Below, piece by piece: positions 1 through 20,837 of a stretch of DNA of 64,000 nucleotides. Every line of letters begins with the position of its first letter. Position 1 is the stretch's first letter. The notes under the pieces were generated by a model that searched no databases, was not told the origin of the DNA, and saw nothing but the letters and a program-made list of their open reading frames with translations. A program made the translations under genes and the position numbers. The DNA comes from Pseudomonadota bacterium (lineage in GTDB: Bacteria; Pseudomonadota; Gammaproteobacteria; Steroidobacterales; Steroidobacteraceae), in NCBI GenBank assembly GCA_021843755.1, contig JAKBWB010000065.1, positions 3,357 to 67,356 of the forward strand, read 5' to 3'.

Positions 1-1244
1 AACGCCCGGACGATCTGGCGGGCGATCTCCGACCCCTCCCGCTCGTTGGTGGATGCGAACGACTCGTTGAGCAGGATCAGGCTCCCTGGCTTCAATCGGT
101 CCACAAGAGCGCTCATCCGGGACAGCTCCTCGTCGAGCTTGCCCTGGCGCATCGTCGGATCCTCCTCCCGCTTGAAGTGCGTGAACACGCCCTTGCAGAC
201 ACCGGCGCGATATTCCTCGGCCGGGACGAACATGCCGCATTGCATGAGCAACTGGGCGAGGCCCACGCTTCGCAGAAACGTCGTCTTGCCGCCGCGGTTG
301 GCGCCCGTGATCACCACAAGACGCGCCTGACCGGTATCCACGTCATTTCCGACGGCCCGCTCCGCCATGCTCAGACTCAAGGAGGCGTCGTAAAGACCCC
401 GCGCCTGCAGGAGGAACTCTCCGTCCGCGGGTTCCGGCAGACTCAGCGGCTCGCCCTTGCCCGCGAGCCGCTCACGCAGATTCAGGCAGCCGAGGTAGAA
501 AGCGAGTTCGGTCCGCAGCATCTTGAAGAACCCCCGGATGTGCCTCGTCGATACGTCGAGCGCGCCCGCCACGGAAGCGAGGGCCTCGTCGCGCAGAGCC
601 TGAAGCGCCTGAAAGCCCGCCTCGTCGCGATCAGCGAGTTCATAGACGTAGCTGGCAGGCTGGCTTCCCATCAGCTGGTGCATCCAGTCCGTCGCGCGCT
701 CGCGCAGGCTAGGCGTCGGCGTAGAGGACCGGCGGATGAGCAGATCCGTGCCCCGGTTGCCGTCACCCAGCCGCGCGCTGAAGAGCAGTCCGTCTCGGAA
801 CTGCAACCGGCGCAGGTGCTCCTTCATGACGCCAAGGAAGGCATCGTCAAGCTCTCGCGCGAGCATGGCGAACAGTGTCGTGAACCCCTCCGAGCGGAAT
901 GCCGCACTCTGCGCATCGGCAATGCCGCGCAATTGCCCGAGGTGATCCCGGAAAATCTCGAGCACCTGCACGCAGCGACGCACCAGAACCTCGGGGTGAC
1001 GGAAGGTCCACCCCCAGACCTGCCGTTCGCGATCGATGGCGGAAGTCGCAACCGCGTACATTCGTCTGACCACCTCCGGGTGCGAAACACAATCCACGAG
1101 GATGGCCTGGCGATAGCGGATTTCCTCTCGATCGGAGAGACTGGCCGGCACCACCCGCTTCGCCACCTCATGGAGGTACGCGTCGCCGGCCGCCATGGCC
1201 TCGTACAGCACTTCGAGCGCCAGATCGCGAGTCAGATCGGTCAT
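1..1244 (-). CDS. MutS-family (domain V-type) ABC ATPase paralog; 3' end cut by the window edge
   Basis: Missing from the ORF track because it runs off the left edge. My translation of the minus strand from ATG 1244-1242 is stop-free to base 1. It reads MTDLTRDLALEVLYEAMAAGDAYLHEV ... VVITGANRGGKTTFLRSVGLAQLLMQCGMFVPAEE (MutS-type Walker A, encoded about 279-340) ... GSLILLNESFASTNEREGSEIARQIV (Walker B position with Asn instead of Asp). The + strand ORF 177..1253 is its shadow frame. Confidence 0.85.
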   Translation of the reverse strand, partial: MTDLTRDLALEVLYEAMAAGDAYLHEVAKRVVPASLSDREEIRYRQAILVDCVSHPEVVRRMYAVATSAIDRERQVWGWTFRHPEVLVRRCVQVLEIFRDHLGQLRGIADAQSAAFRSEGFTTLFAMLARELDDAFLGVMKEHLRRLQFRDGLLFSARLGDGNRGTDLLIRRSSTPTPSLRERATDWMHQLMGSQPASYVYELADRDEAGFQALQALRDEALASVAGALDVSTRHIRGFFKMLRTELAFYLGCLNLRERLAGKGEPLSLPEPADGEFLLQARGLYDASLSLSMAERAVGNDVDTGQARLVVITGANRGGKTTFLRSVGLAQLLMQCGMFVPAEEYRAGVCKGVFTHFKREEDPTMRQGKLDEELSRMSALVDRLKPGSLILLNESFASTNEREGSEIARQIVRA

Positions 1245-1366
1245 CCTCGGTGATTCCCCGCCCACGGGACTGGCGCGCTCACGGAACGCCGCCGAGGATC
1301 GACTGGTGCGCTCGGGCGGCTCTCCGCTCGGAAATAGGTCGCGATCCCGGTACAACAGATGCGCCT

Positions 1367-2959
1367 TCACGGCTTCAAGCGCTCCTTCACCCGCTCGTAG
1401 GTCAGCCCGTGCTTGCGGGCGATGGCCATCGCGTGAGCCAGCCCCTCGGCCGGCCGCTTCAGAACCTTGAAGGTGCGCTTCGCCGGATCCTGCGGATCGA
1501 CTTGTGCCACGAAACTCGCCGTCTCTTCCGACAGTGAGGCCAACTCGTCCAGAAACGTCACGCAAACACACAGCAGGTCACGTTGCATCACCTGCCGCAA
1601 TACCTGCCTGTTCAGGTACAGCGCATCGCTCACCGTGGTCGCATCGAAACTCTCGTTCATGATGAGCAGGCTCCTTGCGGTCGCCCGCTCGAGCAACACT
1701 CTCATCCGCTCCAGGCTCTCCTCCAGCTTGCCTCTCAATGTCTCGACACGCTCTTCCCGCTCGAAGTGCGTCAGTGTCTGATCGACGCGCGAAAGGTACC
1801 CCTCGCGTCCGGGGATCGGGCAGCCAAGGCTCGCCAGGTAATGCATCTGGCCGATGGCGCGCGCGAAAGTCGTCTTGCCACCCTGGTTCGCCCCTGAGAC
1901 CACCAGAATGCGCTCGGGCTCGTGCAGCTCGAAATCATTGACCACCACCTGTCCACCTTCGGCCACCAACTGACGCGCCAGCGCCAGATCGAACATCTCG
2001 AGGCCGCGGATGGCGTCGGCTCGCTCGCTCACGACCGGGTAGCAGAACCGCAGGCCGGCTTTCTTCAGCGGAGCGAGATACTCGAGCCAGGCGAGAAAGA
2101 ACTGCGCGTCACGGTCGAACGCGACGATCCCCGGATCCGGGAAATCGCAATGGCGCTCGCAGTGGCGCGCCAGGCCGGAAAATATCTCCGGGTATAGCCG
2201 GGAGACTCTCTGCAGGATCGCCTCCTCGACGTGATTCATTTCCGGTCGCGATCGGAAGGTGAACTCCCGTCCCTGCACCTCAGCCTGCCGGAATTTCGCG
2301 AACGTCTCGAGCACCTCGGCTGCGTAATCCCTCTCGCCGGCGTATCGGCTCACCTCGACGCGCTTGCCGTCTATCCGCACGGTGTAAATGATGTCGGCCA
2401 GATCTGTTTGCAGCCTTCCGGTTTCGGCAGACAGAGCTTGGAATGGCTCGGACTGCATGTAGTCATCGAGGTATCGGCGCACCTCGAGCAAGCCACGCGA
2501 GCCTGGATTCGCTTCGGCCATCGCTCGGCTCAGTCCGGTGACTGCCCTGCAGTACTCCCCGATGGCGTCAAGGTGCAGTCGTTGCTTCTGCAGCGGAAAG
2601 TAGAATTTCCGCGACTGCTCGAGCAGAGCGCGTACGCCACGCATCCGTTCTGCGAACGAAGTGACGCAAGTAGCGATCGCCGGGGCCTCAAAATCCCGGA
2701 ACACCGCCTGCCGATATCCAATCGCCTCCACGCTCGGTAACGGGGCCCAGAAGATCGGCGTCAGATCGTATGCCTCGCGTCCCGCTATCACCGCGGCGAC
2801 GATCTGATCGAGGCGCAGGTCCGAAAAGCACTCTGGCTGCAGCCGCTGCTCAATTCCGGGCGCATCAGCCCAGTCCTCGGAAAGAATACTGTGGAGCGGC
2901 CCCTTTGCGAGCTTCCGACGGGGCAAACCCCCTACCTGAGCATCGTTCACGGCAAGCAC
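1367..2959 (-). CDS. MutS-family (domain V-type) ABC ATPase paralog with no mismatch-binding or Smr domain
   Basis: 530-aa ORF. Walker A is VVSGANQGGKTTFARAIGQMHYLASLGCPIPG. The Walker B-like segment is SLLIMNESFDATT. A TFLDELA segment follows. The roughly 330-aa helical N-terminal region lacks the canonical MutS domain I GxFYE motif. It lies directly upstream of, and on the same strand as, the paralog at 1..1244. Confidence 0.85.
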   Translation of the reverse strand: MLAVNDAQVGGLPRRKLAKGPLHSILSEDWADAPGIEQRLQPECFSDLRLDQIVAAVIAGREAYDLTPIFWAPLPSVEAIGYRQAVFRDFEAPAIATCVTSFAERMRGVRALLEQSRKFYFPLQKQRLHLDAIGEYCRAVTGLSRAMAEANPGSRGLLEVRRYLDDYMQSEPFQALSAETGRLQTDLADIIYTVRIDGKRVEVSRYAGERDYAAEVLETFAKFRQAEVQGREFTFRSRPEMNHVEEAILQRVSRLYPEIFSGLARHCERHCDFPDPGIVAFDRDAQFFLAWLEYLAPLKKAGLRFCYPVVSERADAIRGLEMFDLALARQLVAEGGQVVVNDFELHEPERILVVSGANQGGKTTFARAIGQMHYLASLGCPIPGREGYLSRVDQTLTHFEREERVETLRGKLEESLERMRVLLERATARSLLIMNESFDATTVSDALYLNRQVLRQVMQRDLLCVCVTFLDELASLSEETASFVAQVDPQDPAKRTFKVLKRPAEGLAHAMAIARKHGLTYERVKERLKP

Positions 2960-3119
2960 CGCTGCGCGACAGTTCGTACCAAAATCCGCAGTCGTGAGGG
3001 GGGCCTGCCGTGTTGCGCGGACGGTCTACCGCTCACCTGACGGTGGGGTAGGCATCATCAGCCCTGTGGCAGTTCGGGGAGGAATGCCATCTCCGTGCGG
3101 CAAATCGTACACTGCTGCC

Positions 3120-5150
3120 ATGTTTAGCTCAACTCACCGGGGCTATCTGCTCGCACGCTTCCGTCACATCGAAGAGCTGCTCGGCGAGGCGGTCGCAGCG
3201 CTCGAGCCTGGGGAAGACGTCCGTCTCTTCAGACGCGTCACTCCCGATGCCACCTCGACTCAACGCCGGATCCTCACCGACTACCTGGGTCAGATCCGTT
3301 ATGCCCTCAGGCGTTTCATGGAGGCACAACAGCTCGAAGACACCGCCTCCCCGGTGAGCGGCCTGTGGTCTGTGCGCACGGCGGTGATCTTTGCCCAGAC
3401 GGCCGTGGCGGAGCTGCGGCCCGTCTACCTTCGCGGATACGGCCAGCTCGACTCCGAGGCCATGGCCGCCTGCGAACGGCTGGTCGCGGAGCTGACGACG
3501 CTGCTGAAGCGGGTCTCCGACTACCTGGACAAGGGAACCGAGGGAGATCTCGCCGCCCGTCTCGCCCGCCTGGATGCGGCGCGAACGGATGTCGCTGCGC
3601 TGCGCGAGCTCGATCGCATCATCATGGCGCACGGCATCGTGGAGCTTCGTGCCCCGCTCGAGGAGCTGATCGAGCGTGCCGCCAACCCGCGTTATGAAGT
3701 GGCCGTGTTCGGGCGGGTCAGCGTCGGCAAATCGACGCTCATCAACTGGTGGCTGGGCGGAGCCGTGTTGCCGACCGGCGTCACTCCCGTCACGGCCGTC
3801 CCCACGCGCATCGTGCACGGAGAGATCTCCGCGGCACATGTGCAAGTGGCCTCATCCGGCCCGGAAGTCGTGCCGCTCGATCGAATCGCCTCGTACATCA
3901 CGGAAGCCGGCAATCCGGGCAATTCCAAACGCGTGCTCGGTGTCACGATCGAGATTCCGAGCGAACGACTGGCCGAGGGTATCCGCCTGGTGGATACCCC
4001 CGGACTCGGCTCGCTCGCCACGGCGGGCGCCATCCAGACGCTCGAGTACCTGCCCCGCTGTGACCTGGCGCTTCAATTGATCGAGGCAGGAGGGGCGGTT
4101 GGGCGCGAAGAAATCGACCTCGCGCGCGCGGTGCTCGACGGCGGCAGCGAGTTGCTCATCACTCTCAGCAAAGCGGACCGTCTGACCGCACCCGAGCTGG
4201 CCGAAGCCCATGCCTATGTGGCGCGGCTATTCGCGACTGCGCTCGGCGTGGCGGTTCCCGTTCACACCGTGAGCACCGTCGGCTCATCGGCCGCGCTTGC
4301 GCAGGAGTGGTTCGACCGGGAACTGGCGCCGCGCTTGGCGGATCATCGGGCTCGGGCGGACGCCCAACTGCGGCGCAAGATCGAGGTGTTGCGGGAGAAA
4401 GTGAGCGCGGCGCTCGAGGCCCGGATACGTTCCACTCCGCGCCCGGCAGCACGGCGGGCCAGCGGCGGCCCGGCAGGAGAGATGGCCGAGCACGGCTCGC
4501 GGGCCCGCCTCCAGCTCGAGCGCGCCCGCTCCGAGCTGCGGCAGATGTGTCTGCGGGTCCGCGAGGTCAGTTCCTGGATCCTGGAGAGCGCCGCCGATAC
4601 CCTGGCCCGCTGCTGGGCCGATCCCACGGTGGAGGAGCGCGGTATCGCCGGCCAGGTCGGACAGACACTCGTCCTCCGTGCGCTCGAGATCGGTGAGGCG
4701 ATCGCCGAGTGCCTCGCACGCTGCCGCGACGATATCAACGGTGCGTTGAACTGTGTGACTCCGCCTGCGAGCGCCTCCCGGCTGGATGAAGAATGGCCGC
4801 CTCGCGGCCGTCCCATCTTTGACAGCACCGGCCTCTTCGAGCGCATACCGTCGAAGAAACCGTGGTGGGCACCGAAGTTGCAGAGACTCCTGCGCCACGT
4901 GGCCAGACAACGCCTCGGTGCCGGCACGCAAACCCTCATCGAAGGGCGCCTGAGCGTCTACTCGGAGGCACTTTGGATCTGGGGCAGCAGTTATCTCGAG
5001 CAGCTGGGCCGACGGCTCGACGAGGCTCTGGCTGCCGATGAGAGCCGCGCCCGACTTGGCGGGGCCGCACCGCTGGCGCCCGAGGCGGCCGCTGCGGCGC
5101 GGCGGGACCTTGACCTCCTGACCTCGGGATTCGATCTACGGAAGGACTGA
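3120..5150 (+). CDS. bacterial dynamin-like GTPase (BDLP/LeoA-type), copy 1
   Basis: ORF 2994..5150. G1 is FGRVSVGKSTLINWWLG. The G2 region is PTGVTPVTAVPTRI. G3 is LVDTPGLGS. G4 is TLSKADRL. A long Ala/Arg/Glu-rich helical stalk follows. Start is uncertain: in-frame starts at 2994, 3084 and 3120. I chose 3120 (MFSSTHRGYL) to leave a promoter gap to the divergent gene ending at 2959. Confidence 0.8.
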   Translation: MFSSTHRGYLLARFRHIEELLGEAVAALEPGEDVRLFRRVTPDATSTQRRILTDYLGQIRYALRRFMEAQQLEDTASPVSGLWSVRTAVIFAQTAVAELRPVYLRGYGQLDSEAMAACERLVAELTTLLKRVSDYLDKGTEGDLAARLARLDAARTDVAALRELDRIIMAHGIVELRAPLEELIERAANPRYEVAVFGRVSVGKSTLINWWLGGAVLPTGVTPVTAVPTRIVHGEISAAHVQVASSGPEVVPLDRIASYITEAGNPGNSKRVLGVTIEIPSERLAEGIRLVDTPGLGSLATAGAIQTLEYLPRCDLALQLIEAGGAVGREEIDLARAVLDGGSELLITLSKADRLTAPELAEAHAYVARLFATALGVAVPVHTVSTVGSSAALAQEWFDRELAPRLADHRARADAQLRRKIEVLREKVSAALEARIRSTPRPAARRASGGPAGEMAEHGSRARLQLERARSELRQMCLRVREVSSWILESAADTLARCWADPTVEERGIAGQVGQTLVLRALEIGEAIAECLARCRDDINGALNCVTPPASASRLDEEWPPRGRPIFDSTGLFERIPSKKPWWAPKLQRLLRHVARQRLGAGTQTLIEGRLSVYSEALWIWGSSYLEQLGRRLDEALAADESRARLGGAAPLAPEAAAAARRDLDLLTSGFDLRKD

Positions 5151-6527
5151 CCGTGCTCGTGCCGCCGAAGCGATCAACGCGCAGGCGTGCCACCAGAGTC
5201 TCAGCCGCGGCGCGACACCGTGCAGTGGCGCTCCGCAGTGCCAGGCGGCTTCCTTCAGCGCCGGAAGCGCCGAATCAACGTTCTCGCGCACGGCTTCGGT
5301 GGCCAGCTTCCTGACTTGCCGATCCTCGTCAGCGAGCAACCGTGTGGTCACACCGGGATCGAGCATCCCACGCCGGCGCATCGCCTGCAGCGCCCGCAGT
5401 CTTACGGCTGGGTCATGGTCGCCCAGAAAGAGCGCGATGGAGTCCGCGTCCGCCGAAGGGATTCGCGCCAGGGCGCGCACCGCCGCCAGGCGCAAGCTCG
5501 GTTCCACCGATTCGCGCAACTGGCGCAGGCGCCCGATAGCCCTCGCGGAACCGAGTCTGCCCAGGGTTTCCACTGTCCGAAGTCGGCGCCTACGATCCCA
5601 AGCGTCGCGGGGTCTCAGCCCGAGCATCGCCACAAGCATGCGCTCGGCCGCGGGTCCGATGCACACCAGCGCGACAATGATCTCTTCCGCGCGCGCCCAA
5701 TTCTCCTCATCCAGCCCGACGGCGAGGGTACCGACCGCGTCCTCCGCCGCTCGCGCACCGCAATGCGCCAACGCCATCGCCGCCTCGATGCGCACTGCGC
5801 GCTGTTTGTCATTCAACGCCTTAATGAGCGCCTGTACTGCGATGGAGCCGCCGTGATCGGTGCGACACGACTCGCCGAGCAACCGCGCGCTCGCCACCCG
5901 GGCATCGATGTGGCTGGGCGGCTCGGGCCCATCCCTTTTCACGCGTGCTTCCCGCAAAGCCTGAGTCAGCGGCGCTGTCGCCGCCTCTCCGAACCGGCGC
6001 AGCGCACTCACGGCGACCGGACGCGCGGCGTCTTCATACAGGCATTCGATCAACAGAGGAATCGCCCGCGGCTCTCTGGTCAGACCTAGAGCCGCCGCGC
6101 AGCCGGGATACCGCCGGTGCCGCAAGGCGGTCACCAGCGCCTCGGTCACGTCCGGACCAGGGAAACGACTAAGGTGCTCGGCAATGTGATTCACGAGGAC
6201 ACTCTCGGCTTCGAGCAACGAGGGTTCCAGCTCGCGCGAAACCGAGTCCAGGAGCGAGCGAATCAAGGCGGCGACAGCCTCTGAGCTGCCGATCGCAGCG
6301 AGCGCACGGGCGGCAAGGCTGCGGGAATGATAAATGGCATCGGGAGCACCGCGCAGGAGGCGCTCGAGAGGCGCAACGGCGGCATCCCCCAGATGTATGA
6401 CCTCGTGAAGGATCAGGGGACCTTCGTGCAAGTTACGCAATCGCTCGACGAGCGACTCCGCCCGAGAGGACGCGTCCCGGTTCTCGGGCTTCACCTGGAT
6501 ACTCTTTAACATACACCACCCGCTCAT
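5136..6527 (-). CDS. HEAT-repeat (PBS-lyase-like) protein
   Basis: 463-aa ORF made of repeated ~30-aa units of the type (D/E)xxVRxxAAxALGxxGxxxAvxxLxxxL. Examples are SLAARALAAIGSSEAVAALIRSL, AVRIEAAMALAHCGARAAEDAV, SLRLAAVRALARIPSADA and AVRLRALQAMRRRG. Alternative start at 6512 (MLKSIQ). The 3' end overlaps the convergent dynamin-like gene by 15 bp. Confidence 0.75.
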   Translation of the reverse strand: MSGWCMLKSIQVKPENRDASSRAESLVERLRNLHEGPLILHEVIHLGDAAVAPLERLLRGAPDAIYHSRSLAARALAAIGSSEAVAALIRSLLDSVSRELEPSLLEAESVLVNHIAEHLSRFPGPDVTEALVTALRHRRYPGCAAALGLTREPRAIPLLIECLYEDAARPVAVSALRRFGEAATAPLTQALREARVKRDGPEPPSHIDARVASARLLGESCRTDHGGSIAVQALIKALNDKQRAVRIEAAMALAHCGARAAEDAVGTLAVGLDEENWARAEEIIVALVCIGPAAERMLVAMLGLRPRDAWDRRRRLRTVETLGRLGSARAIGRLRQLRESVEPSLRLAAVRALARIPSADADSIALFLGDHDPAVRLRALQAMRRRGMLDPGVTTRLLADEDRQVRKLATEAVRENVDSALPALKEAAWHCGAPLHGVAPRLRLWWHACALIASAARARSVLP

Positions 6528-6806
6528 CGGCGCGCTTGCAGTGTGCGCCGCTACGCAGGGGTCATCAGCTCACGGGAGCGGTTGCAGGGAACCCCATCCC
6601 CGGAAGAAACACGCAACCAAGGTAGTCCAGGCGAATCCGCCGGTCAATTCCCCCCCCTCTGTCCGCCCATGCGTAGAGCCCCGATTGACGCCCTCGGGGC
6701 TCCTCATTACGATGATCGCAAGCCTATCGGGGATGGAGTCCCCCGCGAACGGTCTGCATACCTGATGACTCCTGCCACGTCGCGTTAGCGTACGGGGAGG
6801 AGTTTC

Positions 6807-8606
6807 GTGATGAGCAGTCCGAGCGTGCTGAATCCGGCACAAATTGAAAGTACTCCCGAGCCTCGGGTGGAGCTCGCGCAGTGCCTGAACGACGCGACGG
6901 GTCTCCAGGGAATCGATTCCGCGACCTGCGGATGGCTGCGGGAAAAGCTCTCGGAAGAGTTCTTCAACCTGGTCGCCGTGGGCCAATTCAAGCGCGGCAA
7001 GAGCACGATCATCAACGCGCTGCTCGGCGAGGCACTCCTGCCCGTTGGGGTCGTACCCCTGACATCTGTCGTCACCGTCATCCGCTCCGGGCCCCGGACC
7101 TCGGCGCGCGTAACGCTGCGTGACGGGCGGACACTCCCCATTGAGATCGACGCGCTGGCCGAATACGTCACCGAGCGCGGCAACCCCGGGAATGCCAAGT
7201 CGGTCGAACGCGTTGACATCGAGCATCCCTCCTCTTGGCTTGCCAACGGAGTGAGGCTGGTCGATACGCCCGGCATCGCCTCCATCTATGAACACAACAC
7301 GGACGAAACCCACAGGTTTCTCCCGCAAGCGGATGCCGTCCTGCTCATCGCTTCCGTCGACCAGCCCGTCAGCCGTGCGGAGCTCGACTTTCTGAGTGAT
7401 CTGCGCCGCTATGCCGGCAAGACTATCTGTCTGCTCAACAAGACGGACCACCTGCTTCCCGAGGAATTGCACGAGACCATGGCGTTCGCCGTCGGCGCCA
7501 TCCGCGACGCGCTGGGGCCGGATATTCCGGTATTTGCGGTCTCGGGGAAGCTGGCGCTGGAGGGCAGGCTCCGCGGCGAGGCGGAACTTCTCGAGCGCAG
7601 CGGATTCCCGGAGTTCGAGGGGATGCTGCGCCGCTTCATGGCGCGGGAAAAGACCGCCGCCTGGCTGCGGTCGATCGCCCGCAGCCTCGCGCGGCTGCTC
7701 GCCGAAAGACGCTTTGCGCTCGACCTCGAGTCGAAGGTGCTGGTCGAGCCGCTCGAGCGCATCGAGGCCAATCTTGCCCTGTTCCGCGAGGAGAAGGAAA
7801 AAGCCGAGCGGGCACGCCAGGACTACCGCGTATTGCTCGAAGCCGACGCCCGGGCGCTGCTCAAGGAGCACATCGAGCCCGGCCTCGAGGACTTCAAGCG
7901 GAGCGAACAAACCCGGATCTGCGCCGCTATCACCCGCTGGACGGTGGAGCTGCGGCAACTTCCCCCGCACAAGCTCCAGGCGGCGATCGAGGCGCGGATG
8001 ATCACCGCGATTCGAACCGCATACGAGGACTGGCTGGCGCAGCAGGACGTGGAACTGTCACGCGCCTTCCAGCGGCTGTGCGCCCGTTTCTGGGCGAGTC
8101 TGCAGCAGAGCGTCGATGAACTCTTGCGCCGATCGAGCGAGCTGTTCGCCCTGACTTTCGAGCGCACCGACACCGAGCCGCACTGGTCCACTGAGTCCGG
8201 GTTCTACTACAAATTCTGGTACGAACCGACGAGCCTGAGGATCCTCTCGACCTCCGTGGTGCTGATGCTGCCCCGTGTCCTTGCCGCGCCCCTCATCGCA
8301 GGCCGAGCCAAGACCGCTGCCGTGGAACGCGTTGAAGTACAGGCCGGCCGCATCCGCCACGACCTCGAAGAGCGGCTGAAAAAGAGCATCCGGGACGCTC
8401 AAAACCGGATGCTCGAACAGATCGCAGCCACGGTCGCCGGCATCGAAGCGGCGATCGAGAACGGCATCTCGATGCGTAGACTCAGCTCCGCGGAGGTGAG
8501 TGCGCGTAGCGGCGAAATCGAGGACACGCTGCAGAGGATCGCCGAGCTCTCCGGGTGCCTGACCCGAATCCTGTCTAATCTCTGGCCAGATGACGGGTCT
8601 CGTTGA
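6807..8606 (+). CDS. bacterial dynamin-like GTPase (BDLP/LeoA-type), copy 2
   Basis: 599-aa ORF. G1 is VGQFKRGKSTIINALLG. The G2 region is VVPLTSVVTVI. G3 is LVDTPGIASIYE. G4 is LLNKTDHL. The helical stalk contains one hydrophobic segment (LRILSTSVVLMLPRVLAAPLIAG) that could be a membrane paddle. GGAGGAG lies just upstream of the GTG-ATG at 6807/6810. Confidence 0.85.
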   Translation: MMSSPSVLNPAQIESTPEPRVELAQCLNDATGLQGIDSATCGWLREKLSEEFFNLVAVGQFKRGKSTIINALLGEALLPVGVVPLTSVVTVIRSGPRTSARVTLRDGRTLPIEIDALAEYVTERGNPGNAKSVERVDIEHPSSWLANGVRLVDTPGIASIYEHNTDETHRFLPQADAVLLIASVDQPVSRAELDFLSDLRRYAGKTICLLNKTDHLLPEELHETMAFAVGAIRDALGPDIPVFAVSGKLALEGRLRGEAELLERSGFPEFEGMLRRFMAREKTAAWLRSIARSLARLLAERRFALDLESKVLVEPLERIEANLALFREEKEKAERARQDYRVLLEADARALLKEHIEPGLEDFKRSEQTRICAAITRWTVELRQLPPHKLQAAIEARMITAIRTAYEDWLAQQDVELSRAFQRLCARFWASLQQSVDELLRRSSELFALTFERTDTEPHWSTESGFYYKFWYEPTSLRILSTSVVLMLPRVLAAPLIAGRAKTAAVERVEVQAGRIRHDLEERLKKSIRDAQNRMLEQIAATVAGIEAAIENGISMRRLSSAEVSARSGEIEDTLQRIAELSGCLTRILSNLWPDDGSR

Positions 8607-9189
8607 TACCAATGACCCTGGCGTCATGCCCATGCACCCGCGCCTCGTTGATGGCACACGGCTCTTGCGAAAGCCGCCAGTAGGCGGATATCGGCTGGTC
8701 GAGCAACTGCAGCAGTATCGCCCGCATACCGCTATCGTGTCCCACGATCACGATGGTGTCCGCGGGATGGCGCTCGACGACCATCCGCACGACATCGGCG
8801 GTGCGCGCGATGAGATCCTGCAGCGCCTCCCCTTCGGGAAACCGCACCAGGTGCGGCGCTCTCAACCACCGCTCGAAGAGCTCCGGCCACTCGGTACGGA
8901 TCTCGCTGTGCAGACGCCACGTCCAGGTGCCGTAATCGAAATCGTTGAGCTCCTCGGATACGGCCGTCTCGATCCCGCAAGCCCTGGCGATCTCCCTCGC
9001 GGTCTGAACACAGCGCTTAAGCGGACTCGTGTAGAGGATCGCCGGGCGCCAGCGCGAAGCGATGCACCGCGCCGTCGCCTCCGCCTGACGGCGTCCCTCA
9101 TCGGTCAAAGGCACATCCCTTCTGCCCCGGAAGCGCTCCGGTTGAATTCCCTCGACATGGCCGTGACGCACGAGGACCAGGTGACTCAT
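8575..9189 (-). CDS. histidine phosphatase family protein (phosphoglycerate mutase-like)
   Basis: MSHLVLVRHGHVEG...RFRGRRDVPLTDEGRRQAEA carries the RHG catalytic motif, and VIVGHDSG carries the second His motif. ATG at 9189 is preceded by GGAGAA. The track ORF extends to 9240. Confidence 0.8.
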   Translation of the reverse strand: MSHLVLVRHGHVEGIQPERFRGRRDVPLTDEGRRQAEATARCIASRWRPAILYTSPLKRCVQTAREIARACGIETAVSEELNDFDYGTWTWRLHSEIRTEWPELFERWLRAPHLVRFPEGEALQDLIARTADVVRMVVERHPADTIVIVGHDSGMRAILLQLLDQPISAYWRLSQEPCAINEARVHGHDARVIGINETRHLARD

Positions 9190-9790
9190 CGCGATTCTCC
9201 AGGTTGCGGGCAAGGTACGGAGGGCGGCGGCCGCCGTCAATTACCCGAGCCGGCTATCGCAGAGGACAGACGCCCATGATGCGCGAGATTTCCGCCCAAC
9301 TGCGCCAGTATGAGCAAGACAAGTTCGAGCTGGCCGAGATCCTGCGCGCCATCCTGGTCGCGGTCTTACATGCAGCGATACGCGCTGAAGCGCGATGGAA
9401 TACGACGCGCCCTCGTGACCGACGAGGAAGCGCGCGCGGCGCAGCGCGCGCTCGCGCTCCTTGCTGGGATGCCGAATGTCCCGTGCCACAACTGAGATGG
9501 AATGCCAAAAGTTACCATATCCACGCTGCGGCGCGATCGCATCCGCCAATCTTGCCCCCGCGCGGACCATTTGCTAGGATCCCGCGCCGGGAGATGGCAT
9601 CCTCCCCGAACCGCCGCAAGGCTGATGACGCCTACCGCACTCGTCGGATGGAGACGGGTGGGGCGGGTGACACAGCACACCACGCCATCCTCTACCCGCA
9701 ACGACGGCCGACGAGCTGCACCCTCTTCTGATCCGGAGGTGGCGGTGATGTCAACAGGATTCCCCCGCGTCCTCGCATCCCCTGGCTGAA

Positions 9791-10750
9791 GTGTCGGCCA
9801 TGCTGCTTCGCATCCTGGCCAATGCGTTGCAGGTGCTGGTGGTGCTGCTGCTCTCACCGCTCGTGGCGGGGGTGCTGGACCGCCTGAAGGAAATCATCCA
9901 GTCGAAACGCGGCCCCAGCGTCTTGCAGCCATATCGCGACTTGTGGAAGCTGTTCCACAAGGATGAGGTCCTTTCCGATCGCAGCTCCTGGCTGTTCCGA
10001 GCCACACCCTACGTCGTGTTCGTCACGCCGATCTTCGTGACGCTGCTCATTCCCGTACTGACCAACTATCCGCTGTTCCTGGCCTTCATGGCGGACATGG
10101 TTGGCGTGGGATTCGTGCTGGCGCTCGGCGGGTTCTTCGCCACCCTGGGCGCGGTCGACACGGGCAACCCCTACGGCCCGATGGGCGCCAGCCGCACGCG
10201 AATGGTGGCGTTCCTCGCCGAGCCGGTGTTCGTCATCGTCTTTTTCACCGTCTCGTTCGTAGCCGGCTCCACCATTCCCTATATCGTGCAGGCCCACTGG
10301 GCGCTCTCTGCGGCAATCTTCCTGTCGCCGACGCACGTGCTGCTGATGGCGGCGTTCTTCCTGCTCATCCTGGCCGAGGGCGGACGGATCCCGGTCGACA
10401 GCCCCACGGGCCATGTCGAGCTGGCGATGATCGATGAGTCGAAGAGCCTCGAGTACTCCGGCACCGGTGCGGCGCTCATGAAATGGGGCGGGTACATGAA
10501 GTTGCTCGTGCTCATGTGCGTGTTCCTGAACGTGCTGGTCACACCCTGGGGCCTGGCGAGCGGCCAGACACTGTCCGCGGTGGCGCTGGCCATTCCCTTC
10601 GTGGCGCTGAAGGTGCTGATACTCATTCTCGCTCTCGTGGTGGTGGAGTCCTCGCTGGCAAAGCTGCGACTGTTCCGCATCAGCGAGTTCCTGGGAGCCG
10701 CCTTCGTCACCTGCGTGGCGGCGATGATCACGCAGCTGTTCAAGGTGTAA
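9791..10750 (+). CDS. HyfC/HycD-like (NuoH-family) membrane subunit of a group-4-hydrogenase-related complex
   Basis: 319-aa polytopic protein. The N-terminus LLLSPLVAGVLDRLKEIIQSKRGPSVLQPYRDLWKLFHKDEV is typical of formate hydrogenlyase subunit 4 / NuoH-like proteins. First gene of a tightly packed operon. Confidence 0.8.
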   Translation: MSAMLLRILANALQVLVVLLLSPLVAGVLDRLKEIIQSKRGPSVLQPYRDLWKLFHKDEVLSDRSSWLFRATPYVVFVTPIFVTLLIPVLTNYPLFLAFMADMVGVGFVLALGGFFATLGAVDTGNPYGPMGASRTRMVAFLAEPVFVIVFFTVSFVAGSTIPYIVQAHWALSAAIFLSPTHVLLMAAFFLLILAEGGRIPVDSPTGHVELAMIDESKSLEYSGTGAALMKWGGYMKLLVLMCVFLNVLVTPWGLASGQTLSAVALAIPFVALKVLILILALVVVESSLAKLRLFRISEFLGAAFVTCVAAMITQLFKV

Positions 10751-10762
10751 GGATCAATCACG

Positions 10763-11515
10763 ATGAGCGCCACCACCGTGACGAGCACCCTCGCCTCCCT
10801 GAACTCGCTGGTAGGAGGACTGTTCCTGCTCACGGCGTTCGCGATGGTCGCAACCCGGCAGACCCGTGGCTGCCTCCAACTGTTCATCGCGCAATCGCTC
10901 TTGCTCGCCGCCTCGGCCTTCCTCCTTGGTGCCGAGTACCACACCCCGCACCTCTACGGCGTCGGAATCGTCGATCTGATCAGCAAGCCCATCCTCGTCC
11001 CCTGGATTCTGAACCGCACGCTGACGAGGGAGGTTTACGCCAAGCGGGAAATCGACCAGGTATTGAACATCCCGACGTCCCTGCTGATCGCGTTGGCGTT
11101 CGCGGTGTTCGCCTACTTCCTGACGCGGCCGCTCCTCGATGCGGTGGCGCCGCAATTTCGCGGCGCCAATGTGCCGATAGGGTTCGCCGCTTTACTGCTC
11201 GGCGCCTACACTCTTGCGGTGCGCCGTGAAGCCGTGCCGATGTTGCTCGGGATCCTGGCCATGGAGAATGGCGCATTCTTCGTCGGCATCCTGCTCGCGC
11301 GCGACCTGCCGTTCATTATCGAGCTCGCCGTCGCCTCTGACGGACTCATCATGGTGTTCGTCGTCGGCATACTGGTACGGAAGATCCAGCACCGACTCGG
11401 CTCGACGCGGATCGGTGAGCTTGCGACGCTGAGAGAAGGTTCCGCCTCGCCCCCCTCGCCGCTTCCTCACGACGGCTCGATTGCGCCGGAGCGGCAAAAC
11501 CCGAAGGCCGTATGA
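10763..11515 (+). CDS. HyfE-like small membrane subunit (NuoK-related)
   Basis: 250-aa hydrophobic protein in the HyfE position between the HyfC-like and HyfF-like genes. Its stop overlaps the next start (ATGA at 11512-11515). Confidence 0.65.
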   Translation: MSATTVTSTLASLNSLVGGLFLLTAFAMVATRQTRGCLQLFIAQSLLLAASAFLLGAEYHTPHLYGVGIVDLISKPILVPWILNRTLTREVYAKREIDQVLNIPTSLLIALAFAVFAYFLTRPLLDAVAPQFRGANVPIGFAALLLGAYTLAVRREAVPMLLGILAMENGAFFVGILLARDLPFIIELAVASDGLIMVFVVGILVRKIQHRLGSTRIGELATLREGSASPPSPLPHDGSIAPERQNPKAV

Positions 11516-13017
11516 CGCTGCTCCTCATCCCGGGCCTGCCCCTGCTTGCGGCTCTTCTGTCCGGCGCCGCAATGTTGAGACCAAAGCGGCCCCGCGCACG
11601 CGCGAGCGAGCGGGTCCTCGCCGGGATGACCATCGTCAGCTCGGTGCTCGTACTGCTGCTCGCCTCCAAGATGGCCTGGCGAGTCGCCGCCGGCGCGACA
11701 TTCACCGCGCTTTCCGGATGGGTGTCGGTGGATGCGCTCGGCGCCCTGATCATCCTGCTGATCGCCCTCGTGGGCACCACTTCGGCCATCTATTCGTGGG
11801 GATACATGGCGCGCTCCTACACCGAGCCGGGGAGGCTGCGGCTCTACTACGCGAACTACAATCTGTTCATCTTCTCGATGCTGGCGATTCCGATGGTGAA
11901 TGAGCCGACGCTGGTATGGATCTTCGTCGAGCTGACCACGGTGTCGTCCGCGTTGCTGGTGAGCTTCGAGAACACCGAGGCGGCGCTCGAGGCGGCTTGG
12001 AAGTACGTCGCATTATCGCTCATGGGCGCGGGGATCGCGCTCCTCGGATTTCTGCTGCTGTTCTCCACGCTGCAGGCGGCCGGCGGCGAGAGTTATACGT
12101 GGCAAGGATTGCAGCACGTGGCGGCCCGGATGCCGCCCGCACTTCTCACCACGTCGTTCGTGTTGATTCTGGTCGGACTCGGAACCAAGGTGGGGTTCGT
12201 ACCGCTGCACACCTGGCTGCCGGACGCTCACAGCCAGGCGCCCTCGCCGGTGTGCGCACTGCTCTCGGGAATCGAGACCACGAGCGTGCTGTACGTGATC
12301 CTGCGGCTGCTGCCGATCGTGGATTCCGCCTCCACCCCGGGGATGCGGCGGTGGGTGATCGGATTCGGTCTGCTCTCGGCCGGTACGGCCGCGTTCCTGC
12401 TGCTGCAGGTCCGCGATTACAAGCGCCTCTTTGCTTTCTCGACAGTCGAGCACATGGGCATCATCCTCGTGGCCGCGGGGCTCGCCGGCGAGGCGGCTCA
12501 TTTTGCCGCGGTCTATCAGATCCTTGCCCACACGGTCACCAAGTCCTTCTGTTTCTTCGCCGCCGGCGCAGCGCTCCTCACGGTGAAGACCCGGGACATT
12601 TCTTCGGTCCGCGGACTGATTGGCGCCTCCCCAATCGCAGCCATCGCGCTGCTTCTCGGCGCTCTGGCCATCGCCGGGGCACCACCTCTGCCGCTGTTCA
12701 TGAGCGAGTTCGCCATTCTGCGCGCCGGTCTTGCCTCGGGCCGTTATCTCACCGTGGCGCTTCTGGCGCTGTTTATCGTGATTGCCTTCTTCGGGATTCT
12801 GCTGCACGTGAACCGCATGGTATTCGGCAGCCCGAAACCCGGGAATCACGAGCCCGCCACGCAGCCGGCGACCGCTCCTGCGGCCATCATGCCGCTACCC
12901 CACACCTGCATCGCCGTATTGATCGCCGGCGGTGCATTGATGATCGCGCTGGGCTTGGTTCTACCTTCACCACTGCGTGAGCTGTTGCGCCTCGCAGCAG
13001 CGGGCCTGCGGCGGTAG
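11512..13017 (+). CDS. HyfF-like antiporter-type subunit (NuoM/NuoN family)
   Basis: 501-aa polytopic protein with proton-pumping-subunit signatures: FVPLHTWLPDAHSQAPSPVCALLSG and FSTVEHMGIILVA. Confidence 0.8.
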   Translation: MTLLLIPGLPLLAALLSGAAMLRPKRPRARASERVLAGMTIVSSVLVLLLASKMAWRVAAGATFTALSGWVSVDALGALIILLIALVGTTSAIYSWGYMARSYTEPGRLRLYYANYNLFIFSMLAIPMVNEPTLVWIFVELTTVSSALLVSFENTEAALEAAWKYVALSLMGAGIALLGFLLLFSTLQAAGGESYTWQGLQHVAARMPPALLTTSFVLILVGLGTKVGFVPLHTWLPDAHSQAPSPVCALLSGIETTSVLYVILRLLPIVDSASTPGMRRWVIGFGLLSAGTAAFLLLQVRDYKRLFAFSTVEHMGIILVAAGLAGEAAHFAAVYQILAHTVTKSFCFFAAGAALLTVKTRDISSVRGLIGASPIAAIALLLGALAIAGAPPLPLFMSEFAILRAGLASGRYLTVALLALFIVIAFFGILLHVNRMVFGSPKPGNHEPATQPATAPAAIMPLPHTCIAVLIAGGALMIALGLVLPSPLRELLRLAAAGLRR

Positions 13018-13023
13018 ACCATC

Positions 13024-14646
13024 ATGGAAATCCCGGTGCAACGACACGCGCAGTGCAGTCGGCGGAGCCTGCACTTCGAGATCGACTGTCAGCCGCAGCG
13101 CCTGGTACAAGTGTGTAGTGCACTCTCCCGCGCGGGGTTTGGTTTCGCCGGCCTCATCGTCGAGGAGTGGCAGCGCCAATGGTGGCTGAGATACGCATTC
13201 CATTCCCTGAGCGGCAGCGGCGGGAAGATCCTGCGGCGCACCCTCGCAGAGCCGCCGGAACCAGCAGACTTCGCCCCGCTGTGCTCTTCCGCCGACTGGA
13301 TCGACGTGCTCATCCGACAGCCTCTGACGCGCACGAGCTATCCGAGTATCAGCAGCGAGGTGCTCGCCGCGGACTGGCACGAGCGCGAAGCGGAGGACCT
13401 CTTCGAGCTCACCTTCGAGGGCCATCCACGCCTCGGGGACTTCGTGCTGCATGATGTCGCCTGGCAGGAGGGGCTTGCGCCGATGCGCAAGGATTTCAAT
13501 GCGCACACCCCTCCGTCCGAGCGTCGGCCGAATCCGGCGTGGCGTCCGCAGCGCATCGTTCACGAACCAGGCTCTTTCCTGATGCCCATTGGACCGATCT
13601 ATGGCGGCGTCTCGGAGTCAGTGCACTTCACGCTGGAGACGGTGGGCGAAGACGTCATCCGGGCGCTGCCGCGTCTGTTCTACAAATACCGGGCGGTGGA
13701 GAAAATCGCCGAGGGTCGCGCTGCGCCAGACCTACTGTTGCTGGCGGAGCGTTTCAATGGCATCGCGGCCTTCGCCCACGGCCTGGCCTGCGCACAGGCC
13801 ATCGAAACCGTTGCCGGAGTCGAACCACCCGCCCGAGCGCTGACGCTGCGCGTCATGCTCGCGGAACTGGAGCGGCTCAGGCATCACACCGGAACGATCC
13901 ACGACATCTGCGAATCCACCGCACTCACCGTCGCGGCGAGCCAGGCGGCGATTCTTGAGGAGGAGCTGCTGCGGCTTTCGGGCTCGCTCACGGGGCACCG
14001 TTACCTCTTCGGCCTGCTCATGCCCGGTGGACTGAGCCGGGACTTCGAGCAGCACTCGTTGGCGGACGCGGTGCGAGCGGTCCAGGACATCGCGCGCCGG
14101 TTGACCCAACTGGAGCGGCACTTGGTCACGACCAGCAGCTTCCTCGACCGACTGGAAGAAGTCGGCATCGTGACGCCTGCCCTGGCGCGGACCTACGGAC
14201 TCGTGGGTCCCGTAGCACGTGCTTCCGGTCTTGCCTGCGATTTACGCCGTGCGCAACCTTACGCAGCGTACGACGCCTACACATTCGATATTCCGCAGGA
14301 ACAGGACGGCGACGGCTACGCGCGGCTGCGCGTGCTATTTGCCGAAGCCCGCCAGGCGAGCCGCATTCTCGGCCAGGCCGTCAATATGCTGCCGGACGGA
14401 CCCGTGTGCGTCGCCTGCCCCGACATTCCGCCGGGGGCCGCGCTCGGCTGGAGCGAGGCGCCCGTCGGCGCGACCTTTCACTGGATCCACGCGGATGAGC
14501 AAGGACGCGTGAGCCGCTACCACATCATGTCCCCCTCCTTCGCCAACTGGCACGGCTTTCACCTTGCGGCCGAGAAGTTCGCCTTCCAGGACTTTCCCAT
14601 CATCCTGGCAACCTTCGGACTGTCGGCGGCGGAGACAGATCGATGA
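13024..14646 (+). CDS. NuoC-NuoD / HycE-HyfG-like fused large subunit lacking all four [NiFe] cysteine ligands
   Basis: 540 aa. The N-terminal part is NuoC-like (AADWHEREAEDLFELTFEGHPRLGDF). The C-terminal part is large-subunit-like (GPIYGGVSESVHFTLETVGEDVIRALPRLFYKYRAVEKIAEG). Where RxCGxCxxxH is expected the DNA at 13747-13776 encodes ERFNGIAAFAH. Where DPCxxCxDR is expected the protein ends FGLSAAETDR. Confidence 0.85.
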   Translation: MEIPVQRHAQCSRRSLHFEIDCQPQRLVQVCSALSRAGFGFAGLIVEEWQRQWWLRYAFHSLSGSGGKILRRTLAEPPEPADFAPLCSSADWIDVLIRQPLTRTSYPSISSEVLAADWHEREAEDLFELTFEGHPRLGDFVLHDVAWQEGLAPMRKDFNAHTPPSERRPNPAWRPQRIVHEPGSFLMPIGPIYGGVSESVHFTLETVGEDVIRALPRLFYKYRAVEKIAEGRAAPDLLLLAERFNGIAAFAHGLACAQAIETVAGVEPPARALTLRVMLAELERLRHHTGTIHDICESTALTVAASQAAILEEELLRLSGSLTGHRYLFGLLMPGGLSRDFEQHSLADAVRAVQDIARRLTQLERHLVTTSSFLDRLEEVGIVTPALARTYGLVGPVARASGLACDLRRAQPYAAYDAYTFDIPQEQDGDGYARLRVLFAEARQASRILGQAVNMLPDGPVCVACPDIPPGAALGWSEAPVGATFHWIHADEQGRVSRYHIMSPSFANWHGFHLAAEKFAFQDFPIILATFGLSAAETDR

Positions 14647-15383
14647 CCCAATGGGTACTCGAGGGCCTGCGCGCCGGTATTCGCACGACACGCTACCCCT
14701 TTGCCCCCGAGACAGCTGCGGGTGTCAGCCCGGGTCTTCCCGCCGCCGGAGAGCTCGCCCGGCCCGACCTGGAACGGCTCATCGCGCGCTGCCCGACGGC
14801 CGCGCTTGCGAGCGCCGATGGACGGCTCGTAGTCGATGCGCGCCGCTGCGTGCATTGTTTCCGCTGCGTGCGGGGATCTGACACCCCGGCACCCTGGCAA
14901 GGCGGCTATGAGTGGGCAACCGGCGAGGGAACCTTGGGCAAGACGTTCACACGCTCGCTGCACATCAGGGTGGTCGATGCCGGAGATTGCGGGGCCTGCC
15001 TGCATGAGGTCAAGCAGCTCGCCGGTCCCTATTACAGTCTCCACCGCCTCGGCTTTTTCATCTCTCCCACTCCGCGTCAGGCGGATGTGCTGCTCGTCGT
15101 AGGCCCCGGCACCGACCAGATGCGCGAGGCGCTTACCAAGGCGTACAAGGCCATGCCGACTCCTCGCACCGTGATTGCGGTCGGCACCTGCGCGCTCTCG
15201 GGCGGCGTGTTCGGGTCCAACTTCGCGTGCGGCGGCGGCATTTCCTCGATCTTGCCCGTGGATGTGGAAGTGCCGGGTAATCCACCGCCTCCACTTGCCA
15301 TTCTGCACGCCCTGCTGCTCGCCACCGGCCGCGCCGCCCCAGCTGCGAAGGAGCGGCAGACTGCAGGAGAGCGAATGCCATGA
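14643..15383 (+). CDS. NuoB/HycG/HyfI-like small subunit with an N-terminal single-cluster ferredoxin remnant
   Basis: 246 aa. The NuoB core is VVDAGDCGACLHEV...ADVLLVVGPGT...VIAVGTCALSGG...LPVDVEVPGNPPPP. The fourth cluster cysteine (PGCPP) is Asn, encoded by aat at about 15279-15281. The N-terminus carries CPTAA...(17 aa)...CVHCFRC. ATGA overlaps occur at both ends. Confidence 0.8.
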   Translation: MTQWVLEGLRAGIRTTRYPFAPETAAGVSPGLPAAGELARPDLERLIARCPTAALASADGRLVVDARRCVHCFRCVRGSDTPAPWQGGYEWATGEGTLGKTFTRSLHIRVVDAGDCGACLHEVKQLAGPYYSLHRLGFFISPTPRQADVLLVVGPGTDQMREALTKAYKAMPTPRTVIAVGTCALSGGVFGSNFACGGGISSILPVDVEVPGNPPPPLAILHALLLATGRAAPAAKERQTAGERMP

Positions 15384-20742: not shown

Positions 20743-20837
20743 TCGTAGTCGTCAGGTCCCGCTCCCCAGGCTGATGCGGCAACCGTCGCCTGAAAAGGGA
20801 GCGCATTGTCGACGGGGTGCGCAGGAGGTGTCAACCG

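Follow-up and report, generated by a model that had tools for sequence, protein, structure and literature searches.

What brings two MutS-like ATPases, two dynamin-like GTPases and a HEAT-repeat protein together in 8.6 kb of a Steroidobacteraceae genome? The genes lie at the left end of a 64,000-nt stretch of DNA (GenBank assembly GCA_021843755.1, contig JAKBWB010000065.1, positions 3,357 to 67,356; hereafter the window). A preliminary description of this DNA had treated them as a compact, undescribed system of nucleoside triphosphatases (NTPases) and had pointed to anti-phage contexts. Examination of the open reading frames (ORFs) with Pfam confirmed all five genes and their domains, namely a pair of proteins with MutS_V only (MutS4A and MutS4B below), two Dynamin_N proteins (dynamin 1 and dynamin 2) and a HEAT-repeat protein. 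However, what unites the genes was found to be the fluoride riboswitch, and their neighbours are those of the known fluoride regulon, not those of a defence island. The region is a member of the fluoride riboswitch regulon, for which the MutS link has been in print since 2010. With a probability of about 0.85, it is part of a fluoride-stress island made up of several independent transcription units under fluoride control.

In riboswitches of this class, binding of fluoride and Mg2+ stabilises the pseudoknot of the aptamer and turns expression on. An Rfam scan of the whole window identified four aptamers of family RF01734 (the crcB motif; gathering score 34 bits), all scoring above the gathering score and all located within the first 10 kb (Table 1), and the same scan found none in the remaining 54 kb. 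Each lies on the same strand as the gene downstream, 20-150 nt upstream of the start codon, and the aptamer of the MutS4A/B operon sits inside the 160-bp gap that separates this operon from the divergent dynamin 1 gene. The paired strands of the pseudoknot (GGCAU/AUGCC, GGAGU/ACUCC and GGGGU/ACCCC) could be recognised in the window aptamers. A MAFFT alignment of the four sequences placed P2 in two registers and was not used for model building.

A soil-metagenome contig of 183.5 kb (JGI 3300033990, Ga0373184_0000033) contains the window with identical sequence, and the flanking DNA was read from it. Two more aptamers are located there, back to back, to the left of the window, giving a total of six in ~11.3 kb. 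One belongs to a gene for an AAA_16/AAA_22 ATPase, which is riboswitch-linked also in a related genome (L002; L numbers denote individual loci) and is present in L097. The other belongs to a second NuoH-like gene. This gene had been considered as a nuoH fragment marking the insertion of an island into nuoH, an idea that was rejected as the gene is a separate, apparently frameshifted paralogue with its own riboswitch. The compact packing had suggested a single operon-like machine, but the MutS4A/B pair, the HEAT gene and dynamin 2 each form a transcription unit under a riboswitch of its own.

Table 1. Coordinates of the genes and fluoride aptamers of the island and its right edge (positions are those of the window, or those of locus L001 where so marked; own model, covariance model built in this work)
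Feature	Coordinates	Strand	Remarks
Second NuoH-like gene	L001 13272-14217	-	left of window; apparently frameshifted or stop-interrupted
Aptamer of second NuoH-like gene	L001 14402-14470	-	left of window
Aptamer of AAA_16/AAA_22 ATPase gene	L001 14561-14629	+	left of window
AAA_16/AAA_22 ATPase gene	L001 14657-15469	+	left of window
MutS4B-like ABC ATPase	1..1244	-	MutS domain V only; cut by left end of window
MutS4A-like ABC ATPase	1367..2959	-	MutS domain V only
Aptamer, 5' leader of MutS4A/B operon	3042-3103	-	51.0 bits, E 3e-11; own model 48.2
Dynamin-like GTPase 1 (dynamin 1)	3120..5150	+	676 aa; Dynamin_N; N-terminal extension of ~190 aa
HEAT/PBS-lyase-like repeat protein	5136..6512 or 6527	-	HEAT_2; 458 aa from ATG 6512, 463 aa from ATG 6527
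Aptamer, 5' leader of HEAT gene	6549-6610	-	46.4 bits, E 1e-9; own model 52.1
Aptamer, 5' leader of dynamin 2	6720-6781	+	38.6 bits, E 4e-7; own model 51.6
Dynamin-like GTPase 2 (dynamin 2)	6810 (or 6807)..8606	+	598 aa; Dynamin_N; predicted BDLP/IniA type
Histidine phosphatase	8575..9189	-	His_Phos_1, phosphoglycerate-mutase-like; member of conserved gene set
Aptamer, 5' leader of complex-I-like operon	9581-9641	+	52.1 bits, E 1.5e-11
Six-gene complex-I-like operon	9791..17518	+	related to complex I and group-4 hydrogenases
tRNA-Met	20666-20742		edge of accessory region

An alignment of 20 relatives of MutS4A was used to fetch 80 loci from a one-genome-per-species collection, and 81 non-redundant loci were studied. 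An initial search for aptamers with regular expressions gave some false positives, and a calibrated covariance model built from 69 aptamers was used instead to search all loci (1.46 Mb). This model was cross-checked with Rfam, which itself reported 27 of the 27 own-model matches in seven re-checked loci, above its threshold. The 81 loci were found to contain 177 aptamers, with at least one in 74 loci and a maximum of nine in one locus, and in 51 of the 81 MutS4A is preceded by an aptamer within 450 nt. The next gene after an aptamer was MutS4A 42 times, a dynamin gene 22 times and a NuoH operon 11 times; rarer were MFS transporter and Na+/H+ exchanger genes (6 times each) and the HEAT gene (twice). 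Dense arrays of aptamers within ~21 kb occur in L012 (nine), L005 (seven) and L062 (seven).

The reverse test was made with an alignment of 17 dynamin-2 members, which fetched 80 metagenome loci (27-66% identity). These carry 104 aptamers in 616 kb, and an aptamer is found directly upstream of the dynamin gene in 42 of the 73 loci that have upstream sequence. When 95 independent aptamers from the dynamin-2 loci were aligned, pairing was 97.6% overall and 99.2% in the pseudoknot, an interaction between the P1 loop and the 3' tail that is absent from the search model. Compensatory changes were seen in four of the five pseudoknot pairs, and none of 500 shuffles reached the observed values. The pairing and covariation of the pseudoknot in independent aptamers indicate that the aptamers upstream of dynamin genes are genuine, and the dynamin-2 subfamily is, as judged from sequence, a member of the fluoride regulon in its own right.

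The ORFs surrounding the MutS4 genes were clustered and then annotated with Pfam. Dynamin-like GTPases were the commonest neighbour, present in 35 of the 81 loci (33-35 within 10 kb). They were followed by MFS transporters (22), antiporter-like subunits of a complex-I-like operon (21), enolase (18), DUF190 (11), His_Phos_1 and Usp (9 each) and the Na+/H+ exchanger (8). Pairs of MoxR AAA_3 and DUF58 genes were equally frequent (8), the CrcB fluoride channel, a metallophosphatase and a small HEAT_2 plus zinc-ribbon protein were each found in 7, and homologues of the window HEAT protein in 6. Examples for the small HEAT_2 protein and the MoxR-DUF58 pairs are L029 9395-9832 and L073 13136-14107. 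As CrcB, enolase, the Na+/H+ exchanger, Usp, MFS transporters, His_Phos_1 and metallophosphatase match the repertoire reported for the fluoride regulon, these neighbourhoods support the assignment of the region to it. Genes for mutS and 'formate hydrogen lyase' have also been reported downstream of the crcB motif (PMC2864571; PMC11139923). The MutS4 homologues co-localise with dynamin genes across many phyla and in some lineages also with HEAT genes, a co-occurrence that the preliminary description had proposed to check. A place in defence islands, which it had also raised, was not borne out, as the top 16 recurrent neighbour families in 161 annotated loci include no defence family.

MutS4A/B were also found on plasmids. 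On Klebsiella conjugative plasmids they lie between an antiporter-Usp pair and crcB-gpmA-eno-usp-ppaC, and on a Burkholderia cenocepacia plasmid they are located beside crcB, a CLC channel, a histidine phosphatase and an MFS transporter. These fluoride-resistance islands (L165, K. pneumoniae plasmid NZ_CP017986; L166, B. cenocepacia plasmid NZ_CP073671) are carried by conjugative plasmids of clinical isolates, with MutS4A/B annotated as 'DNA mismatch repair protein MutS', and 45 plasmid records were matched.

The set of dynamin, His_Phos_1, dynamin, HEAT, MutS4A/B and AAA_16/22 ATPase genes recurs in a Steroidobacteraceae genome with a MutS4A that is 64% identical. This recurrence, together with the dynamins near MutS4 in other loci, bears out a functional link between the genes, which had been proposed from adjacency, and argues against chance. 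In 19 of the 81 loci, ~700 nt or less separates a dynamin gene from the MutS4 pair; in 16 of these the dynamin gene shares the strand of the pair, and in 3, the window among them, it is divergent. However, MutS4 genes are present within 6 kb in only 6-9 of the 80 dynamin-2 loci, so that an obligate coupling of dynamin and MutS cannot be upheld. The MutS4-dynamin link is tighter than shared regulation alone would require, yet it is non-obligate.

Both MutS-like proteins carry the Pfam MutS_V domain only, without MutS domains I-IV or Smr, and their scores of 50-65 bits reach none of the NCBIfam cut-offs for MutS1, MutS2 and KamC (300-642), in agreement with the earlier remark that mismatch-recognition motifs are lacking. 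In domain architecture and tandem arrangement, the pair matches MutS4A and MutS4B of Lin, Nei and Ma 2007, who gave these names to domain-V-only, tandem proteins from Thermoanaerobacter and Thermoplasmata with function unknown (PMC2190696). In that paper the family comprised members from five bacterial species and two archaeal ones, and it was proposed to act in DNA metabolism (PMC2190696). In the comparison set used here, which is not that of Lin et al., the pair of Thermoanaerobacter sp. (L008) is 46% and 50% identical, and L029 and L075 are archaeal loci. The novelty claimed for the MutS-like part therefore falls away, as MutS4A/B were named in 2007 and mutS was listed downstream of the crcB motif in 2010.

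MutS4A has thousands of relatives, and MutS4 loci span more than 12 phyla plus two archaeal groups. The phyla include Planctomycetota, Actinomycetota, Acidobacteriota, Chloroflexota, Bacillota, Verrucomicrobiota, Dormibacterota, Eremiobacterota, Spirochaetota, Nitrospinota and Atribacterota, and further loci are found in Alpha-, Beta-, Gamma- and 'Delta'-proteobacteria. Gene A is followed by gene B in tandem in 81 of the 81 non-redundant loci, and MutS4A/B are an obligate two-gene module. In a Stellaceae locus (L038; 10001-17608), the sole split pair, two same-strand dynamin-like matches lie between MutS4A and MutS4B.

The Walker A motif is GANQGGKTT in the MutS4A-like and GANRGGKTT in the MutS4B-like protein of the window. 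In Walker B, the Mg2+-coordinating Asp is replaced by Asn (MNES in MutS4A, LNES in MutS4B), which is invariant in the family alignment (column N435), and a link between this residue and Mg-fluoride chemistry is speculative. A structure has been solved for Escherichia coli MutS with the same engineered change (D693N; 3k0s). In both sequence and fold, the closest solved relatives of MutS4A are MutS2 cores, including those on collided ribosomes (7vuf, 9kce and 7qv3), with Foldseek matches of the model at a template modelling (TM) score of ~0.3 that support only a 'MutS2-like core'.

Dynamin 2 belongs to a large family, and a profile search of solved structures identified Nostoc BDLP (2j68, E 4e-33), IniA and Campylobacter DLP1/2 as closest. 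Its AlphaFold model, with a predicted local distance difference test (pLDDT) score of 75, gave a full-length match to 2j69 (E 2e-22, 681 aligned columns) and to IniA, and LeoA ranked 32nd in the fold search behind BDLP, IniA, DLP1/2, SynDLP and mitofusins. The protein has the G motifs GQFKRGKS (G1), DTPG (G3) and NKTD (G4), and a conserved aromatic motif, GFYYKFWYEP, is followed by a hydrophobic segment (478-497; the whole ~463-497) at the place expected for a paddle. On the basis of the model, dynamin 2 is assigned to the BDLP/IniA type, with helical neck, trunk and paddle-like segment, and is predicted to be membrane-active.

Dynamin 1 has the G motifs GRVSVGKS (G1), DTPG (G3) and SKAD (G4). 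Both dynamins scored 20-23 bits against the NCBIfam CrfC model (cut-off 1146), and the NCBIfam DynA equivalog was not matched (49 bits, cut-off 1600). Orthologues of the dynamin-1 type are rare, accounting for 7 of 139 dynamin places, and as every one of them is located near a dynamin-2-type gene, their distribution suggests that dynamin 1 and dynamin 2 form a heterotypic pair. The orthologue in L005 has its own riboswitch. In the window, any promoter of dynamin 1 must lie in or beyond the 160-bp gap (2960-3119), and the 5' untranslated region of the gene could then be antisense to the MutS4 riboswitch.

Homologues of the HEAT protein with 57-63% identity are encoded beside a dynamin 2 gene with riboswitch in L002, L085, L086, L089, L091, L094 and L120. 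Loci of an alphaproteobacterium, a deltaproteobacterium and a verrucomicrobium encode more distant homologues near MutS4 and dynamin genes, and the three kinds of gene are found together in no fewer than four lineages that are distant from one another.

The fourth riboswitch-controlled unit encodes NuoH-, NuoK- and NuoL/M/N-like subunits, a NuoC-D fusion, a NuoB-like subunit and a second antiporter-like (NuoL-like) subunit, and homologous operons adjoin MutS4A/B in ~13-21 of the 81 loci. The NuoC-D fusion (13024-14646) lacks both NiFe motifs, having HGLACAQ in place of RxCGxCxxxH and ending in SAAETDR in place of DPCxxCxxH/R. As these cysteine motifs are absent, the complex is hydrogenase-related (Ehr-type) and not a hydrogenase or formate hydrogenlyase. 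Complexes of this kind are usually annotated 'formate hydrogen lyase', and the NuoH subunit here shares up to 74-84% identity with its counterparts in other phyla.

Of the leaders, only that of dynamin 2 has a significant alternative fold (RNAfold z = -3.4). In the ligand-free minimum free energy structure of this leader, the 3' strand of the pseudoknot, ACUCCUG, pairs with the ribosome-binding site GGAGGAGU. The predicted fold fits a translational ON switch in which the ribosome-binding site is most likely the signal that is freed.

In the mechanism proposed, intracellular fluoride with Mg2+ would lock the aptamer pseudoknot in each leader and free the downstream expression signal, which for dynamin 2 would be the ribosome-binding site, permitting translation. 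Four units would be induced, namely the MutS4A/B pair, the HEAT protein, dynamin 2 and the complex-I-like, ion-translocating membrane complex. MutS4A/B would pair as a heterodimer, an ABC ATPase of the MutS2-like kind that lacks mismatch-recognition and nuclease domains, and might act as a nucleotide-gated clamp on nucleic acid or ribosomes, like MutS2, or together with the dynamins. Dynamin 2, as a membrane-active protein, would work with the neighbouring dynamin 1 as a heterotypic pair, and the two may maintain or repair the cytoplasmic membrane. The antiporter-like complex would counter the acidification that results from influx of hydrogen fluoride (HF). The specific role in membrane repair is put forward tentatively, at less than even odds.

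Several points weigh against a fluoride-stress island of this kind. Fluoride binding and induction are expected by analogy with other members of the aptamer family. Neither Rfam nor the own model detected a riboswitch for dynamin 1 or the histidine phosphatase in the window, and the window contains no CrcB exporter, a CLC-type exporter not having been searched for. The folds of the HEAT and MutS leaders are no better than those of shuffles, and no intrinsic terminators were found after the window aptamers, for which reason expression platforms based on transcription terminators were rejected. The AlphaFold model of MutS4A (20 sequences) is poor, with a mean pLDDT of 59, especially in the ATPase domain.

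A reading that is compatible with the fluoride-stress island but goes further is that MutS4A/B, the dynamins and the HEAT protein are one physical multi-NTPase machine, for example with a HEAT scaffold bridging the MutS-like clamp to membrane-bound dynamins, and with fluoride merely the inducer. It would account for the dynamin genes close to MutS4 in 19 of the 81 loci, 16 of them on the same strand, for those lying between MutS4A and MutS4B in L038, and for the rank of dynamins as the commonest MutS4 neighbour (found in 35 loci, where enolase reaches 18 and CrcB 7). The MutS4-dynamin-HEAT trio is moreover seen in Gamma- and Alphaproteobacteria, a deltaproteobacterium and Verrucomicrobiia (L001/L002, L014, L050 and L066). 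However, more than half of the MutS4 loci have no dynamin within 10 kb, the reverse association is confined to the 6-9 dynamin-2 loci mentioned above, HEAT homologues occur in just ~6 of the 81 MutS4 loci, and the window genes are separate, differently oriented transcription units, making a single machine unlikely. The related proposal that the dynamin subfamily and MutS4A/B, sometimes with a HEAT scaffold, constitute a dedicated fluoride-induced machine is similarly doubtful. Such a machine may carry out membrane repair or remodelling that limits HF entry or seals damage, with the MutS4 clamp as a nucleotide-gated regulator; alternatively, the Walker B Asn of MutS4 may alter Mg2+ handling so that the enzyme resists the poisoning of NTPases by Mg-fluoride. 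If true, MutS4 would thereby gain its first function, and a ligand-specific trigger would for the first time be known for a bacterial dynamin.

The proteins might otherwise repair fluoride-induced damage to replication or translation, not to the membrane, with MutS4A/B acting on DNA junctions or on stalled or collided ribosomes and the dynamins on the nucleoid or replisome like the clamp-binding dynamin CrfC. The proximity of MutS4A to MutS2 cores, some on collided ribosomes, and the weak CrfC matches of both dynamins are in keeping with this, and a DNA-damage link was suggested for the crcB motif by Weinberg et al. 2010 (PMC2864571). However, MutS4 has no Smr nuclease, KOW or mismatch-binding domain, the CrfC matches fall far below the cut-off (20-23 bits against 1146), dynamin 2 conserves a paddle-like segment and best matches the membrane-active BDLP and IniA, and the neighbours are overwhelmingly membrane transporters and glycolytic enzymes; this role is rather improbable. 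A defence role against phages, in which the dynamin pair would be akin to Eleos (LeoA/LeoBC) and the MutS-like ATPases would be accessories, is very improbable. The PADLOC LeoA and LeoBC models do match dynamin 2 (E ~1e-20) and dynamin 1 (E ~1e-9), toxin-antitoxin genes are located a few kb away on the contig, and the region looks accessory, with slightly lower guanine-cytosine (GC) content and a tRNA at its edge. However, such matches are generic for any bacterial dynamin, LeoA appears only at rank 32 of the fold search, the two dynamins form no adjacent operon, having a HEAT gene on the opposite strand between them, and the genes are under fluoride riboswitches. The defence reading was rejected, as the PADLOC matches are those of generic dynamin and P-loop proteins and the neighbourhoods hold no recurrent defence genes, none being among the 16 leading families. 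Least probable of all is a lineage-specific chance adjacency of five unrelated accessory genes. Gene order and orientation do vary greatly between loci, but co-occurrence across more than 12 phyla, a shared cis-regulator and retention of the set in the relative with the 64%-identical MutS4A all speak against it, and it was considered refuted by the co-localisation and riboswitch counts.

The proposed fluoride-stress island covers ~20 kb. It begins a short way outside the left end of the window and reaches ~17.5 kb, stopping short of tRNA-Met. The GC content of the window is ~64-69%, and the nearest named relatives are Steroidobacteraceae genomes assembled from metagenomes. The first 414 codons of MutS4B are inside the window, and the protein has 513 aa in full on the source contig. 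Homologues of MutS4A have ~510 aa, and its true start may be up to ~20 codons downstream of GTG 2959. The two genes are 122 nt apart in the window and overlap in L002. The divergence of the MutS pair from dynamin 1 was confirmed, but the gap is the longer of those considered. The start of dynamin 1 is ATG 3120 and not GTG 2994, according to the gene call of the source record and to orthologues that align from residue 1-2, and the gap is therefore 160 bp. The 15-bp convergent overlap of dynamin 1 and the HEAT gene (5136-5150) stands as described. Dynamin 2 and the histidine phosphatase gene also converge, with a 32-bp overlap (8575-8606), and relatives of the latter adjoin dynamin-2 relatives in ~16 metagenome loci.

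From ~20.8 kb on, a housekeeping block is present (ychF, pth, rplY, prs, tRNA-Gln, ispE and prfA; 20666-27260). The tRNA at which toxin-antitoxin islets had been reported is indeed there, as tRNA-Met, but the islets could not be verified, the three ORFs directly before it having a methyltransferase match or no Pfam match. PemK/RHH and HipA_C genes are present a few kb away, but beyond the window, at the opposite flank of the cluster.

The spacer of 109 bp (6611-6719) between the back-to-back HEAT and dynamin 2 aptamers contains the hairpin at 6676-6702 that had been described with an 8-bp stem. The hairpin is real, but its stem (GAGCCCCGA/TCGGGGCTC) has 9 bp, with a 9-nt loop. Within it lies a predicted -35 box, which belongs to the promoter-like sequence TTGACG-17-TACGAT (6685-6713). 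The spacer keeps two opposed TTGAC boxes, seen in relatives (L002 7269-7352, L091 and L120) as CGTCAAC-N11-GTTGACG, and these are probably back-to-back -35 elements. A regulatory role for the hairpin was rejected, as it is unconserved in six related spacers, ~2% of shuffles of the spacer yield a perfect stem of at least 8 bp, and the divergent TTGAC boxes explain the spacer better; the hairpin is probably incidental.

Mitigation of fluoride toxicity is usually explained by exporters and extra copies of fluoride-sensitive enzymes. The link between the riboswitch and 'mutS' has been listed since 2010 and never explained, and the genes concerned are the tandem MutS4A/B, seen here in the window and 160 loci. 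A dynamin subfamily of the BDLP/IniA type is under riboswitch control about as consistently as MutS4, and the two families are frequently direct neighbours. The physiological triggers of bacterial dynamins are largely unknown, and sodium fluoride, as a simple inducer, would open their function to direct tests in carriers that are culturable or plasmid-borne. Such carriers are Cupriavidus sp. TMH.W2, whose plasmid pTMH.W2_3 has three dynamins, MutS4A/B and five riboswitches, Ca. Formimonas warabiya DCMF, Pseudomonas schmalbachii Milli4, and plasmids of Klebsiella, Burkholderia and Rhodococcus. Fluoride tolerance also limits the engineering of organofluorine degradation (PMC11139923).

Compared with the fluoride riboswitch regulon (Weinberg 2010; Baker 2012; Stockbridge and Wackett 2024), the region has the same aptamer in 5' leaders, the same gene classes ('mutS', 'formate hydrogen lyase'-like, Na+/H+ antiporters, enolase, Usp and CrcB) and the same expected logic, in which fluoride turns genes on. 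It differs in that this window has no CrcB and in an unusually high aptamer density, with 6 in ~11 kb of this region, and related loci reaching 9 in 21 kb. No paper naming dynamins, the HEAT protein or the AAA_16 ATPase as members of the regulon was found in the searchable literature, which does not extend to the supplement of Baker et al. 2012, where dynamin-family genes may already be listed. The FRM operon of Enterobacter cloacae, ppaC-uspA-eno-gpmA-crcB-orf5249 (PMC5533749), is likewise multi-gene and riboswitch-controlled, and is horizontally mobile. The gpmA/His_Phos_1 enzyme is common to both (PMC5533749), and a near-identical gene set is located directly beside MutS4A/B on the Klebsiella plasmids. 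However, the window lacks crcB, eno, ppaC and usp, and the FRM operon lacks MutS4 and dynamin genes.

Eleos shares with this region the use of dynamin-family GTPases, with weak matches of the PADLOC hidden Markov models, but here there is no adjacent leoA-leoBC operon and no defence context, the genes are under riboswitch control and LeoA is a distant fold match. The MutS4A/B of Lin et al. 2007 have the same domain-V-only architecture, tandem paralogues and a patchy distribution in bacteria and archaea shaped by horizontal transfer, to which thousands of members, the tie to the fluoride riboswitch and the Walker B Asn in both subunits are added here. Like Nostoc BDLP1, mycobacterial IniA/IniC, Campylobacter DLP1/DLP2 and B. 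subtilis DynA, dynamin 2 has a G domain with G1-G4, a predicted helical neck and trunk, and a paddle-like segment, with its best sequence and fold matches in 2j68/2j69, 6j72/6j73 and 5owv. Like the DLP1/2 and IniA/C pairs, the dynamins of the region are two distinct proteins, and by analogy with the ini operon dynamin 2 is predicted to be stress-inducible. However, unlike in the known pairs, the two genes are not in tandem, and induction would depend on an RNA that senses an inorganic anion, in place of a protein regulator or of envelope stress.

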